From: an uncultured bacterium
Lineage (GTDB): Bacteria > Zixibacteria > MSB-5A5 > UBA10806
Direction of reading: 5' to 3'
DNA length: 64,000 nt
Assembly (NCBI GenBank): GCA_965541585.1
Contig: CBEUCH010000009.1
Location: 32,001 to 96,000, forward strand
Every line of letters starts with the position of its first letter. The first letter of the stretch is position 1. Of this stretch, positions 12,001 to 24,000 are shown one piece after another. The position numbers are program-made.

Positions 12001-15000
12001 CGGGGCATTAATCTTCAGGAGTAAAATCATGAAAGATCTCTTAGTCTTTTTAATAGCGCTATCGATAGCGTCTATGGCCATTGCAGCGCCGATAGAAAAT
12101 GTAACGTCATCGGCCCTGATGCCGGGGGATGAGATCCTTTTCAACCTCGATTTCTTAGATCCATTCGGTCTGCCGATCTTCGATGTCTCCATCCAGGCCC
12201 GGATCAGCAACTTCCCTGAAATCCATTCGATCCCACTGGAGCATCTCGACTTTCCGCCTTATTATTTGAATACCTACGAAGGCAGTTGGATTTTCGAGGA
12301 ACCGGTAAGCGTAATCGAGTATTACGGCCGCGTGGAAGCTGAAACACTGGTCATAACCCAGTCGTTCCGGAATACCGGCAATCAGTTTCCGCCCGAGATG
12401 ATGCTGTATGCGGATCTGGCCGAGGAAGCAGTAGACGATACGTTACCCGGAACTCCAGGCTCATGGCTCGATCTTTCGGGTGCCGCAATCACTTATTCCG
12501 AGGATAGGATCTTTGCGCGCCTCGATAATGTGGATGGTGGCTGGCCCACCGACGACGGCTTTCTGGAATTCTATATTTACGCGTTTGCTCTCTATAATCC
12601 GGACAACGTCGGACTTTCGGCAACCGCCATGGTTTATGCCAATGTCCCTTTTTTCCTTCCCGATCCCGGCCTGTATCATGTAGATCTTCAGGATACCACG
12701 TTTGAGAGAATAGGGGACATTTGGGTTACTCCCCAGGGTAGAAACCTTCATATGTCATGCGCGATCGAAGATCTCCTGGCCGATCCCGATTGGGATGCCT
12801 GGCCTCCGGAATCAGGGTTCGCTCTGGTAGGAGGCCTGACTATCACCGTAAGCCTGTTTGAACCTTTCCTGAGCGATTACACATATCCGGGAGCTTTCGT
12901 TCCGATGACTCAATTTCTCGATCTCTATGAAAACCAGATCCCGGATTTGAACGTGTCGATTTCCGTTGAGCCTGACTTTTCCGTGACTGCGAATGCGCTT
13001 TATTTCGACCAGGATAATAATTTGCCGGTGGAAAAATATCTCTTCTTCGACTGGGGTTTTTACGAGATGGGCTCTTATGTTCATCAATATGACGGGGATG
13101 AAGCGAATTTCGAACATATTCTGCCGCCTCAGATTGAGGGCTGGCATTATTACCACTTTAGTTTCTCCGACGGGGACGAGGTCGTTGAGACGCCCATGGA
13201 CTCCGTTTACATTTCTCAAACCGGAATCGAGGAGCCTCATATCCCGCTGGAATTCTCGTTGCACCAGAATTACCCCAATCCTTTCAACTCCTCCACAAAT
13301 ATCAGTTTCACGCTCCCGGAGGCGGGACATGTTAAACTTGATATCTATGATATTGCCGGGCGGCTTGTGAATACGCTGGTCAATGCTGAGATCGATGCTG
13401 GCCGGCAAACCGTGATCTGGGACGGCACCGATCAATCGGGTCGGCCGGTGTCATCGGGGATCTATTTTTATACTATGCGCTCCGGCAACGATTTAAAATC
13501 GCACCGCATGCTGCTTCTCAAATAGCTTAAATTCGGACTTGACAAAAATATCAACTATTGCTAATAAAAGGTCTTCGGAGGATAATCTCTTGGGACCTTT
13601 GAAGGAAAAGACCGCATCATCAATTGGAGCGGATGAGTATTCCCGCCTCAGCGGGGAGTATTTCAACTCTCAGTATGCGGAGGAGGAGTTCTACTGGGGC
13701 GAGCAGCCGAATTTGCTGGTGCCGTTGGTAAGCAGCCACTTAGAGCCTGGCTCCCGGGTGCTTGTAATAGGCTGCGGAGAGGGGCGCGATGCGCTTTTTC
13801 TGGCGCGGTTCGGCTTCGACGTCATTGCTACAGATATCGCTTCTAATGGTCTCGAGAAGGCCGGACGCCTGGCCGAAGGAAATGGCTGCAAGCTTCAGCT
13901 TATAAATCTGGATGCCCACCGGTCGCATGACCATCTGGGCGTTTTCGACGGCCTTTTGTCTATGAATGTCATACAACTCTTGAATCCTGACATGATAACA
14001 GGGCGGTTAGCATACTTTCAATCGCGGGTTAGATCGGGTGGAATAGTCGCCATTCAAGTCTTTACCGTTGACGATCCCAATTACCAGGATTGGCTGAAAT
14101 CCGGAATTCCACCGAGAGGATCACTGACCTTTGAGCACCCGACGCGCGGGTATCCTATCAGATTTTTCGCAAAAGGAGAACTGGCATCTCATTTTGAAGG
14201 CTGGGAGTTTATTCATTATTACGAGGGCTTATTGTGGGATAAGCCTCACGGCATCCAGAGCGGTTTCCACCAGCATGGGTTTGCGCAGATCATCGCCAGG
14301 AAAAAATCGGATACCTGGTCATAGGTTAAACATTTCAAATCTCTGAATTGATAGACTTATATTTCTTTTCATAAGAAGGAACTTATAGATACCTGGCGCG
14401 ATTAGAGTTTTAGGAGACTCGCAAGGAGGTCACGGTTGAAAGGGAGTCATGTTTTTAAAGAGGCTTTTCGAACCATACAGGATTGAGATCGTCGAGGAAA
14501 GCAACCTCGGTTCCGGCCTGTCAAGGGCAGTCTATACTATTAAAGGTCTCCCATGCTTTATATGAGCCGGTTTGACCGGCTCCGGTCTGGAGCGGCAACC
14601 GGGAGTCAGGGAGGCCGAAATCTCTGATGATATGGCGGTTATTATCTTCGCTCCCGGAGAAACCAGTATCGATCGAATTTCTAATTATCTATCAAAATTC
14701 GGAGTCAAGGGAAAATTGAATATGACCTTGGAGCGCTTATATCGATTATTCCGGCCACATAAGAATCATAAATGAAATCGTTTTATTAAATTATTTTGCA
14801 GGTGTAAGTTTAATAATCGGCTGACCAGGCTTTACCAGATCGCCCGGCCCGAAGTGAATGGATTTCACCTCCCCGTCGGTGGGCGATTTTATTTCGTTTT
14901 CCATCTTCATCGATTCCACAATCACCAGAGATTGTTTAGCCCTGACTTTTTCCCCTTGCTTTACCAGTACCTTGACCACCTTGCCGGGCATCGGAGTGCT

Positions 15001-21000: not shown

Positions 21001-24000
21001 CATTTGTTCATACCAATACCGATTACCGCGACTTCTCTCATCTATATTCCTCCGGGAATCCCATTCATCAATAATCCTTACTCACCCCTCATCCTGATTT
21101 TGCCCCGGTACTTGGAATAGGTGCCGTAATCAAGATATTTTCTGTTGTCCGATTCCAGCATGTCCCTGGTCTTCGCCGCCTTGTCCTGCACCTCTTTTAT
21201 CCGGTCGGTCACCTTCCAGATAAAACCATCGCTACCGGCCCCGGAGCCATAGGAGACCATGAAGACCCAATCTCCCGGCCTGGCGACATCGAGTATCGCC
21301 GTAAGGCCCATGGGCGACGAGCCCGAATATGTATTGCCCAGAAGCGGACATAACCATCCGGTTTCTATCTGCTCTTTTGTGAAACCGAGTTTCTTGCCGA
21401 CGGTCATGGGGAATTTGCCATTCGGCTGGTGGAAGACCGCATAAGCAAAATCCTCGGGCTTCATGCCGGATTTATCCAATATCGCCCTGGCGCAGCCCGT
21501 GATGTGTTTAAAATAGGCCGGCTCTCCCGTGAAACGGGAGGCATGGCTGGGATAAAACTGATGTTCGCGTCGCCAGAAATCGGGTGTGTCAGTCATGAAT
21601 GAATGAGTGTAATGACACTCTGCGATAATATTCTCTTTGCCGAATATGAACGATGCCGCCCCCGCCGATGCGGAGTACTCCAGGGCATCACCGGGCGCTC
21701 CCTGCGAAGTATCTGCGCCGACACCGACTCCATACTCTATCTCACCGGCCTTAACCAGGCTCATGGCCACGAACATGCCCTCTGACCCGGCTTTGCAGGC
21801 GAATTCGAAATCGGCGCAATGGCAATCCGGGACCGCTCCGATAGCCTCCGCCAGGGTCGTTCCGCTCGGCTTGACCGCATACGGATGTGATTCCGAACCG
21901 ATATATACAGCGCCGATCTTCCGGGGATCGATGCCTGCACGCTTGATAGCGTGCCTGGTAGCCTCTACGGACATGGTTATCGTGTCCTGGTCCGGACCCG
22001 GAACAGATTTTTCCTGGAGCATCAAACCTCTTTTGTAGCTGGGGGCATCGGCGCCCCAGACCTTGGCGATCTCCTCGACTTTGATCCTGTTTCGTGGTAT
22101 GTATGCACCGTAACCAATTATTCCCGCCATAAAAAATCCTCGCTCGCTGGATCTATTTTGAAAGCTGTTTGCATCTCGTTTTCATAGTTTTAGCAATCTA
22201 AGATTTGGGTATCTTAATGTCAACTTATTTGCCTTAAAATCAGTTGGATGCCCAGTATATTCATCTGTTGCGAGCGCCCAAGCTCACTTCCTCCATCTAA
22301 TGCTAAAATCGATTATTATATTTTTCAGGTGGAAGCTAGGGACATACCGGGGATTGTACAATGAAAGCAGCAACGGAATACTAAAATCGAATTGATTATT
22401 GCTCGATCAAACCATATATTTGCGCCCGGTGATCTATCGGAAAAGAATCTTTTTTTAGGGTAGATAATGAAAAAAATCACAAATCCGTATCTGATGCAGG
22501 GAATATTGTCGATCATTATCGTGACAGTTTCATGTGGATTATTCGCTCCTTCCGAAGATGCGTATCTGAAAAACTATACCAAGGCCCACGAGTACATGGT
22601 TCAAAACCTGCCTCATAAAGCGATTCCTTTTTATAAAAAGGCGTTAAAGCAAAAAGAAGATTTTACATCGGCCTATCAGGAGATTGCCGTGTGCCTGCAG
22701 ATGATAGGGGAGAACGACAGCGCCATAGTCTATTATGAGGGCGCCATTGTATACAATCCCCGCAATGTCGATGCCTACCAGTCCATAGGCAATATTTACT
22801 ATATGCAGGGGAATTATGATGATGCCCTCATAAGGTATGACCAGGCCACCGAGGTCGATGATCTCTACCCCCGTTCATACAACAACATGGCCACCATCTG
22901 GCTTTCACGCGGAAACTATGAGAAAGCAAAATATTACTATGAACTGGCAATTACCGTCGATGCCACCTATCCGCGTGCTTATTACGGTCTGGGTATAGTT
23001 GCCCTGAAGCAGGGAGATATAGAGGAAGCGGAAGCGAAGTTCTTGGACGCGGTCAAGGTTGGCTCCATGCCGGAGGCGATCTATATGCTGGGGCAGTTGA
23101 ATTTCGAAAAGAGGACTTACAATAAGGCGAAAAACTGGTTCGAGAGATATCTTGAAAAAGAACCGATTGGCGAATGGGCCGAAAAGGCGAAAGATATGCT
23201 GCTTATTATGAAGCAGAGCAATGCGGATAATGAATAACAAAGAAGTAGGTCGGGTTTATGGTGTGCCCGCGGGCTGTGAAACCCGACAAAAAAGCACAGC
23301 CTGCGTGTCGCCTTTATTGCGACCGCTCTTGGTGCGGTCATAACAAGTTATGACACGCAGGATATCATTTCGCAAGACGAAGGAGAGAATAAGTAGAGAT
23401 GTAGGTCGGGAGCCCTGCGCTCCCGACAAAGAAGGATAGCCTGTGTGTCACCTTTATTGTGATCGCTGAGGTGGGATTAGCAGTTTAAAAGAAGATTTGG
23501 CTGGTAGGGATATTTGTATGGATGTAAGTCGATACGTGAGACCTTTTAGAAAAATATATTATTACTTAACTATCTTCACTTTTTGTATGCTTTTTTTAAC
23601 TGGATTAGTGACCTTGATATCAAATAGTATGGAAAGTTGGGTTGATTTTATAGATGCTATGGTTTTAACGCCTCTCACTGCCGGATTCCATTTGTTACTT
23701 ATCATGATTCTGTTGAGTATTGCCGGTATTATTATCGATTGGGCTCGGAAACTAAGATATTTTCTAATTATAATCGGATGCCTTACCTCAATGGTTTTTC
23801 TATTTTTGTATTCAGTATTTTTTTATTTTTTAAATGTAGGCGGATTTTATCAATAGATAATAAATGTAGGTTGGCAGTTTATCTGCTGACAGCTGAGACT
23901 AAATAATCTGGTGCTAAGGAGGAAATAAGATGGCTGGTGAAGCGGTAATATTATCGGCATGCAGATCGGCGGTCGGGAATTTTTTAGGCGGGCTGTCATC

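Follow-up and report, generated by a model that had tools for sequence, protein, structure and literature searches.

What does an archaeal-type HMG-CoA synthase do in an apparent leucine-degradation operon of a bacterium in which neither HMG-CoA reductase nor HMG-CoA lyase is found? HMG-CoA synthase is taught as a one-way biosynthetic enzyme. The locus lies in a window of 64,000 nucleotides (the whole stretch of DNA analysed) from an uncultured member of the Zixibacteria (assembly GCA_965541585.1, contig CBEUCH010000009.1; genome completeness 98%).

The operon and its catalytic residues

The survey's finding described seven co-directional genes and an archaeal complex fused into the operon. 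Seven minus-strand open reading frames are present at 14791..22130 of the window. From the HMG-CoA synthase (HMGS) to the biotin carrier, they are spaced by 36, 1, 29, 21, 199 and 31 bp, which indicates separate genes in one run. The single gene run therefore stands and the fusion does not. HMGS (21078..22130, minus strand, 350 aa) scores 524 bits against TIGR00748 (cut-off 353) and retains Glu80, Cys112, His234 and Asn266, a tetrad kept in 80/80 homologues. It matches chain I of the archaeal complex 6ESQ at E 2.8e-141 and the best PhlA-type chain at 2.6e-57, reproducing the gap first reported. The archaeal-type (HDxF) acetoacetyl-CoA thiolase (19881..21041, minus strand, 386 aa) scores 530 bits against PRK06064 (cut-off 420), with matches to 7YVY (E 1.6e-115) and 6ESQ (E 4.7e-107, again as reported). 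Its CxS, HDxF and GHx motifs, as defined in the available part of PMC12960953, read C83-A-S, H283-D-C-F and G-H333-P and are kept in 71 of 72 homologues. The catalytic Glu, Cys and His residues previously listed for the two enzymes are in place. The adjacent DUF35 scaffold (19490..19879, minus strand, 129 aa; zinc ribbon and OB fold, PF12172 and PF01796) scores 121 bits against 6ESQ chain E versus 61 bits against PhlB. Judged by HMGS family and tetrad, thiolase motifs and the neighboring DUF35 gene, this is an archaeal-type trio at the sequence level. 6ESQ is the best structural-database match for HMGS and DUF35, and the three adjacent genes and all catalytic motifs are common to both systems (available parts of PMC11522927 and PMC12960953). 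In contrast to the archaeal complex, the trio here belongs to a bacterial host with DXR and without HMG-CoA reductase (HMGR), is co-directional with carboxylase and hydratase genes, and would, on the reading proposed here, act in cleavage.

Downstream of the trio, the 3-methylcrotonyl-CoA carboxylase (MCC) beta subunit, the carboxyltransferase (17853..19460, minus strand, 535 aa), scores 732-741 bits against solved MCC beta chains, 459 bits against geranyl-CoA carboxylase beta and at most 281 bits against classic PCC-type chains; its top match, 9TPS (761 bits), is labeled propionyl-CoA carboxylase by the depositors. The crotonase (17034..17831, minus strand, 265 aa) is the putative 3-methylglutaconyl-CoA hydratase (LiuC role), assigned from its position and from 41-46% identity to the crotonases of lyase-bearing MCC operons. 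Its best NCBIfam scores (PRK07468, 276 bits; PRK05674, 252 bits) fall below cut-off. The earlier description of this protein as AtuE-like is not borne out, as solved AtuE scores only 121 bits and several other crotonases score higher. A biotin carboxylase subunit (15335..16834, minus strand, 499 aa; PRK08591 at 645 bits, cut-off 597) and a biotin carboxyl carrier protein (14791..15303, minus strand, 170 aa; MKM motif at Lys133, NCBIfam carrier matches) complete the run. The operon has its MCC beta, hydratase, biotin carboxylase and carrier genes, as well as nearby acyl-CoA dehydrogenases, in common with the Pseudomonas Liu (leucine/isovalerate utilization) operon and with a cluster for anaerobic isovalerate breakdown in Desulfococcus multivorans (PMC5109826); here, the trio stands in place of their HMG-CoA lyase and acetoacetate CoA-transferase or ligase. 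The best reading of these gene assignments is that the operon encodes the lower part of leucine/isovalerate breakdown, in which the final step is altered. A putative sigma-70-type promoter (22195..22223, minus strand), 65 bp upstream of the HMGS start, is the best placed of 11 consensus matches, a total at chance level (shuffle mean 9.5) that makes it only a lead.

It is very improbable that the trio has been repurposed as a PhlABC/MucABC-type acyltransferase or an Ltp2-type thiolase-DUF35 retro-aldolase, or for a larger substrate such as geranyl-CoA in the Atu pathway. Both kinds of enzyme are known for this scaffold, PhlABC and MucABC being bacterial trios of HMGS-like, thiolase-like and DUF35 proteins as here (available parts of PMC12960953 and PMC12329534), and the name of AtuA comes from a terpene pathway. 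However, the tetrad is lost in PhlA/MucA and HDxF in PhlC/MucB, whereas both are intact here, and membership in those families was rejected on this ground. The Phl and Ltp2 chains also score far below 6ESQ. Membership in the Atu pathway was likewise rejected, given the MCC-type rather than geranyl-CoA-type carboxylase, the distance of the crotonase from AtuE and the lack of an AtuA match in the genome.

The surroundings in the window are catabolic, which was counted in favor of cleavage. On the plus strand, 3751..12011 encodes VorB-type 2-oxoacid oxidoreductase subunits, a second biotin carboxylase and carrier, and methylmalonyl-CoA mutase and epimerase (PRK07119, TIGR00641 and TIGR03081 above cut-off). 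On the same strand, 23930..29203 encodes, by NCBIfam, a classic thiolase, a 3-hydroxybutyryl-CoA dehydrogenase and two acyl-CoA dehydrogenases that may catalyze the isovaleryl-CoA step. Relatives of the AtuA and lyase types carry this set of four genes after their MCC block. The reading frame at 33866-34789 is presumably branched-chain aminotransferase-like. The reported conservation across phyla is upheld: among 80 GTDB loci around HMGS homologues, 79 have the thiolase, 71 DUF35, 50 an MCC-type beta subunit and 42 the biotin carboxylase. Where at least 9 kb of downstream sequence is available (45 loci), the counts are 45, 45, 37 and 35, with the carrier in 34. Outside Zixibacteria-titled records, strong lyase and ScoA matches each occur in 0/33, AtuA in 1/33 and strong HMGR matches in 5/33, which was also counted in favor of cleavage. 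Genes, residues, gene order and the pattern of distribution are direct observations.

Missing partners and the forward direction

No PF00368 (HMG-CoA reductase) match was found in the genome, in searches where the controls were recovered, and tblastn with reductase and decarboxylase-like queries gave no match. An HMG-CoA lyase was not found in the genome. DXR is present, in agreement with the survey's picture of isoprenoid synthesis by the MEP route. Five activator families or queries found no acetoacetate-activating enzyme in the genome; the lyase and activator of a canonical Liu pathway were thus not found, while its MCC-type carboxylase is clear and its hydratase is assigned by position and likeness. 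The full mevalonate pathway (reductase with downstream kinases/decarboxylase) is likewise not found here and is seen in 20 of 141 relatives.

These 20 relatives carry an HMGR-kinase cluster, in every case in a trio-bearing genome, and the sister family f2 has HMGR in 5/5 genomes. This association would be expected if the trio supplied only mevalonate, or were a leftover of that role, with another enzyme cleaving leucine-derived HMG-CoA. Such an arrangement is distinctly improbable: no reductase was found in 91 of the 111 close-HMGS genomes, and the trio is intact with invariant catalytic sites. The 444-aa DRE-TIM protein suggested for the cleavage (G000:C1:416342) groups by score with the isopropylmalate and homocitrate synthases, gives no match to a lyase family at E 1e-10 and lies at the end of what we take to be a benzoyl-CoA-reductase-like cluster. 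A lyase would also release acetoacetate, for which no activator was found in the genome. The HMGR clusters inspected (5/5) have no synthase of their own, and DXR is absent in 4/5 tested HMGR genomes, a pattern that fits forward use of the trio; their mevalonate cluster apparently uses the same HMG-CoA. In view of the co-occurrence of HMGR and trio, the complex probably does not run one way in every genome but is reversible, with an HMG-CoA pool shared with mevalonate in these relatives.

Forward use in the source organism would be anabolic: acetyl-CoA would pass through HMG-CoA and 3-methylglutaconyl-CoA, with MCC reversed as a decarboxylase, to isovaleryl-CoA for branched lipids or, by Vor carboxylation and transamination, to leucine. 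This is unlikely. No PF01144 protein, which we take to be the family of the AibAB decarboxylase, is found in the genome, and membership in the myxobacterial Aib route was therefore rejected. The biotin carboxylase and carrier kept in the long loci are what ATP-driven carboxylation requires. IlvD is not found in the genome, yet Vor-type, acyl-CoA dehydrogenase and aminotransferase-like genes lie in the window, as a leucine route would need; auxotrophy also explains the missing IlvD. Forward is nonetheless the favored direction of the archaeal complex (available part of PMC11522927), and a reverse-Liu route to isovaleryl-CoA is described in Myxococcus (available part of PMC9636800). The Myxococcus MvaS/LiuC/AibAB/AibC and caprazamycin Cpz5 routes in that source join an HMG-CoA synthase to Liu intermediates, as here, but run forward and use a bacterial-type synthase and a dedicated decarboxylase in place of a biotin-dependent MCC.

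Three occupants of one slot

A third occupant of the lyase position, absent from the earlier note, is AtuA. The 128 MCC-bearing genomes of the phylum divide into 84 with the trio only, 23 with trio and AtuA, 13 with AtuA only, 7 with lyase and ScoA, and 1 with none, in which the thiolase and DUF35 genes run off the contig. Loss of the trio is confined to genomes that carry AtuA or a lyase, and lyases should not replace a biosynthetic trio, which further argues against the anabolic route. The exchange is in place: AtuA directly follows DUF35 in G083, AtuA-only genomes have the same flanking genes with the trio absent between them, and the position after the carrier gene holds the trio in G138 and L074 and the lyase in G004, G007 and G025. 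In family f3 (n=49), 21 genomes have both, 18 the trio only, 10 AtuA only and none neither (3.7 expected). On the MCC tree, the AtuA-only state needs 5 changes, at least 4 of them forced by well-supported branches. Related genomes are not independent of each other, and the redundancy of trio with AtuA is a correlation.

AtuA, the substitute for the trio, belongs to a C-C lyase family: in fold, its model (pLDDT 88) comes closest to the citramalate lyase 9EVF (E 4.8e-24), a chain named AtuA-family protein by the PDB. Lyases of this family (CmlAB, PDB 9ERQ/9EVF; ThnQS, PMC12016498; Pseudomonas AtuA) would break the bond joining the tertiary carbinol to the free-acid arm, as HMGS would in reverse. 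They differ from HMGS in their unrelated fold, their HMG-CoA activity is predicted, and acetate is expected to leave unactivated. The CitE-family (R)-HMG-CoA lyase Rv2498c reportedly yields acetyl-CoA and a free 3-oxoacid; no CitE-family protein above cut-off is found in this genome. Rv2498c is a precedent for a non-homologous enzyme ending leucine breakdown (available part of PMC6689899).

ScoA occurs in 7/8 strong-lyase genomes, a link from two families, and in 0/111 close-HMGS genomes, and 71/84 trio-only genomes lack both ScoA and acetoacetate-CoA ligase. The survey's overlap of lyase with HMGS, read as partial exclusion, proves to come largely from paralogues, since close-HMGS genomes hold 15 of the 17 weak "lyase" matches. 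The six inspected share 32-36% identity with an MCC-linked lyase. Five of them adjoin a CaiB-type CoA-transferase rather than MCC, and a LeuC-like gene comes next in the two longer loci. The trio of G120 faces an operon with a lyase. Four genomes with a lyase have a divergent trio, which stands alone in both of those inspected. The trio is kept in 36/36 MCC genomes without a COX1-family oxidase, and 42/43 genomes with AtuA or lyase have a COX1-family match. The Pfam family of COX1 also includes NO reductases. A COX1-family gene in 49/84 trio-only genomes, including the source genome, indicates that the trio also occurs outside anaerobes.

The claim that the trio is wired to the leucine pathway, in place of the lyase, is supported by this exchange. 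With the 71 trio-only genomes lacking acetoacetate activation, exchange with two C-C lyases makes the direction lean catabolic; as relatives carry established cleaving enzymes in its position instead, the trio probably splits HMG-CoA in reverse.

Proposed cleavage of HMG-CoA and its energetic consequence

By homology, MCC would carboxylate 3-methylcrotonyl-CoA using ATP, and the crotonase would hydrate the product to HMG-CoA. The HMGS/thiolase/DUF35 complex would then work backwards: HMGS Cys112 would take the free carboxyl arm of HMG-CoA, release acetoacetyl-CoA and pass the acetyl group to CoA, and the thiolase would drain acetoacetyl-CoA immediately through the shared CoA pocket, pulling the uphill first step. 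Here we infer the substrate, the direction, complex formation and CoA as acetyl acceptor. The net reaction would be HMG-CoA + 2 CoA to 3 acetyl-CoA + H2O, and, with no free acetoacetate or acetate to re-activate, one thioester bond would be saved relative to the lyase route. That the trio performs this last step of leucine/isovalerate breakdown is judged an even prospect. Counted against it were the 23 genomes with both trio and AtuA, G120, the four lyase genomes with a divergent trio, the reductase-bearing relatives, the COX1-family genes of trio-only genomes and the energetics. With forward free energies taken as +26 and -36 kJ/mol, the reverse is approximately 10 kJ/mol uphill and needs an acetyl-CoA/CoA ratio of approximately 0.1, or HMG-CoA at least fivefold above acetyl-CoA at a ratio of 0.3; it stays uphill in five of six trial concentration sets.

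Hydrolysis of the acetyl-enzyme in the same direction (HMG-CoA + CoA to 2 acetyl-CoA + acetate) would be downhill by approximately 21-26 kJ/mol on the free energies assumed, but, as with an acetate-releasing lyase, would save no thioester. Acetyl-CoA hydrolysis is a side activity of HMG-CoA synthases, and the genome has an acetyl-CoA ligase-like gene. Acetate release is also the chemistry assigned to AtuA, the replacement of the trio (available part of PMC4847356), and a 3-oxoacyl-CoA product is given for ThnQS as unpublished results in the available part of PMC12016498. This outcome is rather unlikely: it leaves unexplained both the trio in all 36 MCC genomes without a COX1-family match and the retention of a channeling thiolase and DUF35 beside three classic thiolases, and a leaky synthase would squander acetyl-CoA in mevalonate-using relatives.

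The thioester-saving cleavage may extend well beyond this genome. It is somewhat short of an even prospect that reverse HMGS is physiological in many uncultured phyla, converting leucine-derived HMG-CoA to three acetyl-CoA by thiolase channeling as the default in oxidase-free lineages, replaced by AtuA or classic lyases only where respiration removes the need, and doubling as mevalonate entry in reductase-bearing genomes; AtuA proteins of the single-chain type next to MCC would then be HMG-CoA:acetate lyases. If so, a textbook "irreversible" enzyme would complete a catabolic pathway, with channeling opposite to the described direction, and annotations that take the archaeal-type synthase as a sign of the mevalonate pathway, or an absent lyase as an incomplete leucine pathway, would be corrected. 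The trio is possibly an energy-saving end to the textbook leucine pathway, which would be worth approximately one extra ATP-equivalent per leucine or isovalerate to energy-limited sediment and digester bacteria.

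An archaeal-type HMG-CoA synthase trio in a carboxylase operon

As the survey's finding had it, the operon consists of seven co-directional genes, which occupy the minus strand of the window (22130 to 14791) with intergenic gaps of 36, 1, 29, 21, 199 and 31 bp in operon order. The first ORF passes the archaeal HMG-CoA synthase (HMGS) model TIGR00748 with 524 bits (cut-off 353). The E-values to 6ESQ of 2.8e-141 for the HMGS and 4.7e-107 for the thiolase reproduce those first reported (3e-141 and 5e-107), versus 2.6e-57 for the HMGS and the best PhlA-type chain. The thiolase matches 7YVY at E 1.6e-115, while its matches to chains of the Phl and Ltp2 types reach 1e-35 at best, and the DUF35 protein scores 121 bits to 6ESQ versus 61 to PhlB. 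In one report, the archaeal type is recognised by the synthase tetrad E-C-H-N together with HDxF in the thiolase (PMC12960953). Both are kept in this operon, and the tetrad is found in 80/80 near-full-length HMGS homologues and the thiolase motifs in 71/72. The term archaeal-type is used here as a family label. On these motifs and scores, an Ltp2-type aldolase role for the thiolase-DUF35 pair was rejected.

By sequence, the carboxyltransferase is of the 3-methylcrotonyl-CoA carboxylase (MCC) type (732-741 bits to MCC beta versus 459 to geranyl-CoA carboxylase); its top match carries a propionyl-CoA carboxylase label. The crotonase, earlier described as AtuE-like, falls below family cut-offs and is only distantly related to AtuE; from its gene position, it would be the hydratase of the operon. 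A promoter scan upstream gave matches at chance level. The 199-bp gap between the hydratase and biotin carboxylase genes (16835-17033) holds two alike short palindromic stretches, possibly a REP-like element or a site of RNA processing. Elsewhere in the window, a 261-aa minus-strand ORF (29474-30259) combines a SEC-C-like start with five repeats of a 'EGKVWSEEHGHWH'-like histidine motif.

Among 80 GTDB loci around HMGS, the thiolase is present in 79, as previously counted, DUF35 in 71 (not 72) and MCC-type beta in 50 (not 51). Where at least 9 kb lies downstream (n=45), the counts are 45, 45 and 37. In agreement with the wide distribution claimed before, the 50 MCC-type loci span ten named phyla by NCBI ranks, in which some record titles may be wrong, with no phylum named for 14 of them.

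Trio, AtuA and lyase in one operon position

To place the HMGS-thiolase-DUF35 trio among its relatives, each player was searched in a sample of 141 genomes of the phylum, source genome included; genomes absent from the match lists were assigned by elimination. Matches were obtained for the synthase in 115 genomes, MCC beta in 128, the lyase family in 24, AtuA in 36, acetoacetate CoA-transferase (ScoA, over cut-off) in 16, HMG-CoA reductase in 20, acetoacetate ligase in 44 and the COX1 family in 104. Lyase matches were divided at E 1e-100 into 8 strong and 17 weak genomes (G120 in both). The strong matches sit in MCC operons (4/4 loci read). The weak ones share 32-36% identity with a strong one (6 of 17 inspected) and adjoin a CaiB transferase in 5/6 loci read; for these six, context and identity rule out real lyases. 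Genes for an HMGL-like protein and a CaiB CoA-transferase recur together with LeuC/LeuD-like genes as a module (L034:8411-11872; L035; L012-L014) that passes the HMG-CoA lyase cut-off and, by analogy, probably represents a citramalyl-CoA-type pathway.

MCC occurs with neither a synthase nor any lyase match in 12 genomes, 11 of which encode a 600-aa AtuA directly before MCC beta; in the twelfth, the thiolase and DUF35 genes run off the contig. With a synthase stub of 201 residues, and neither thiolase nor DUF35 in the 12 kb read, G137 was counted as AtuA-only. The 128 MCC genomes thus comprise 84 with the trio only, 23 with trio and AtuA, 13 with AtuA only, 7 with lyase and ScoA, and 1 with none; the 13 genomes that lack an MCC match stand outside this tally, and three of them (G119, G120 and G130) carry the trio. 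A divergent-type synthase occurs in four genomes, of which two were read and have it apart from MCC and two were classed by score. Divergent stand-alone trios of 54-56% identity are found in family f7 (L032:2644-5340; L033:9304-11999), in genomes without a reductase whose Liu operon is of the lyase type. In G120 (L031, contig C30), a trio and a lyase-type Liu operon face each other, and the thiolase and MCC beta each look split over two frames, possibly through assembly errors.

Gene order points to exchange in place. The order is trio-MCC in G045 and G088, trio-AtuA-MCC in G083, and trio, inserts, AtuA and MCC in eight genomes read from family f3. The AtuA-only genomes lack the trio with flanking genes unchanged, G049 has the trio and lacks AtuA, and in G138 and at L074 the trio comes after the carrier gene, the position of the lyase in G004, G007 and G025. 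In f3 (n=49), 21 genomes have both, 18 the trio only, 10 AtuA only and 0 neither, where 3.7 would be expected; one may be absent, never both (Fisher p 0.008, overstated by kinship). On a quick MCC tree (71 of 128 sequences, G137 still labelled trio-bearing), the AtuA-only state requires 5 changes, at least 4 of them forced by well-supported branches. Of 80 metagenome loci centred on AtuA (many of them short), 19 contain MCC-type beta, 7 the synthase and none a lyase or ScoAB, and AtuA follows biotin carboxylase, again the lyase position, in five.

An alignment-based AtuA model (74 sequences, pLDDT 88; the single-sequence fold gave 33) matches chain A of citramalate lyase 9EVF, which the PDB names an AtuA-family protein, at E 4.8e-24, and the C-terminal domain of the model matches chain B. 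The predicted single-chain fold resembles both CmlAB subunits fused. In the literature, AtuA has been put forward tentatively as a lyase that releases acetate (PMC4847356), the AtuA-like ThnQS is reported from unpublished results to yield 3-oxoacyl-CoA (PMC12016498; PMC13689101), and a review assigns the terpene step to LiuE instead of AtuA (PMC4097962). We infer that AtuA acts on HMG-CoA; if so, two of the three occupants of this position would be cleaving enzymes, and AtuA would cut the bond made by HMG-CoA synthase. The single-chain AtuA proteins that adjoin MCC beta or occupy the Liu-type lyase position (L017:7572-9371 in G019 and 35 other genomes; also L247, L248, L252, L292 and L300) are, on the model, candidate HMG-CoA:acetate lyases, possibly nucleotide-dependent.

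Metabolic setting of the source genome

In the source genome (98.2% complete), neither HMG-CoA reductase nor HMG-CoA lyase was found, in line with the survey. Likewise, no CitE-family protein or acetoacetate-CoA ligase over cut-off, no family I or CaiB-type CoA-transferase and no AtuA was found; positive controls matched for every family except AtuA, which no control genome has. The genome carries the MEP-pathway marker DXR, a COX1-family oxidase, Si-citrate synthase, one FabH-like gene and three classic thiolases. Its two HMGL-like matches are an oxaloacetate-decarboxylase-like subunit and a 444-aa DRE-TIM protein whose scores place it with isopropylmalate and homocitrate synthases; no match to the lyase family was obtained for it. 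A Re-citrate synthase role for the latter was dropped, since the Si-type enzyme is present. This LeuA/homocitrate-synthase-like protein ends a stretch (C1:395949-417676) in which a benzoyl-CoA-reductase-like cluster is followed by acyl-CoA dehydrogenase and 2-oxoacid oxidoreductase genes. A lone ketol-acid reductoisomerase (C2:26424-27461), in a genome where no IlvD was found, perhaps serves pantothenate synthesis, for which there is precedent. Within the window, Vor-type subunits, methylmalonyl-CoA mutase and epimerase, a classic thiolase, Hbd and two acyl-CoA dehydrogenases constitute a branched-chain catabolic setting.

Direction of the synthase

The leading reading has the synthase run in reverse with CoA as acetyl acceptor, giving three acetyl-CoA; we judge its chances evenly balanced. 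The forward free energies are +26 and -36 kJ/mol. The reverse route therefore comes to +10 kJ/mol, which counts against it, and is feasible only at low acetyl-CoA/CoA with HMG-CoA build-up, which the ATP-driven carboxylase could supply. A back-reaction has reportedly been seen crystallographically in a staphylococcal HMG-CoA synthase. Reversal with hydrolysis would be 21-26 kJ/mol downhill; we consider it unlikely. Forward use toward isovaleryl-CoA or leucine has precedent, as far as the source was available (PMC9636800). However, no PF01144 protein for it was found in the source genome, and a synthetic role leaves the replacement of the trio by lyases unexplained; this route appears distinctly unlikely.

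Several patterns among partner genes support the reverse reading. ScoA is found in 7/8 strong-lyase genomes and in 0/111 close-synthase and 0/36 AtuA genomes, a pattern that is weak alone because ScoA is confined to three families. Neither ScoA nor acetoacetate-CoA ligase is present in 71/84 trio-only genomes. The ligase co-occurs with AtuA (f3: 27/31 versus 2/18) and lies inside a Phe/Tyr homogentisate-type operon in 10/10 loci read; the link was thus rejected as evidence that AtuA frees acetoacetate and marks oxygen use instead. In oxygen-using relatives (L205-L214), HPPD and an aromatic amino acid hydroxylase of 600 aa share this operon with the ligase. The trio is kept in 36/36 MCC genomes that lack a COX1-family match, and 42/43 genomes with AtuA or lyase have one. 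Against reversal, an oxidase-family gene is present in the source genome and in 48 further trio-only ones, 23 genomes keep trio and AtuA together, and G120 keeps trio and lyase. On the supporting side, in a wider sample (50 of the 58 loci that neither bear a Zixibacteria title nor match that group, of unstated completeness), genomes with MCC in the locus (n=33) gave 0 strong and 2 weak lyase matches, ScoA 0, AtuA 1 and 5 strong reductase matches plus one weak; the other 17 gave strong lyase 4, ScoA 3, AtuA 5 and reductase 5.

A compact mevalonate cluster (L144:317-3714; L145-L149), present in 20/141 relatives by reductase match, encodes IDI-2, a 768-aa reductase-kinase fusion, and decarboxylase-like and kinase-like proteins. 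It has no thiolase of its own, no synthase was found in it in 5/5 loci read (one of which runs to a contig edge), DXR is absent from 4/5 reductase genomes tested, and 20/20 reductase genomes have the trio, a further point against reversal. Evidently, the HMG-CoA of the operon feeds mevalonate in these genomes, whether formed by the forward reaction or out of leucine. That metabolite's identity as HMG-CoA gains support from this, and no one-way use is shown. A mevalonate role or relic of the trio, accompanied by a hidden lyase, is very unlikely, and repurposing of the trio for other chemistry is scarcely credible.

The literature searched, whose coverage excluded most subscription journals and supplements, yielded no account of the operon or of HMGS working in reverse, and the accessible part of bioRxiv 2025.11.21.689712 held nothing relevant. 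All proteins of the operon belong to known families; it is their wiring, and the direction proposed for it, that is new.
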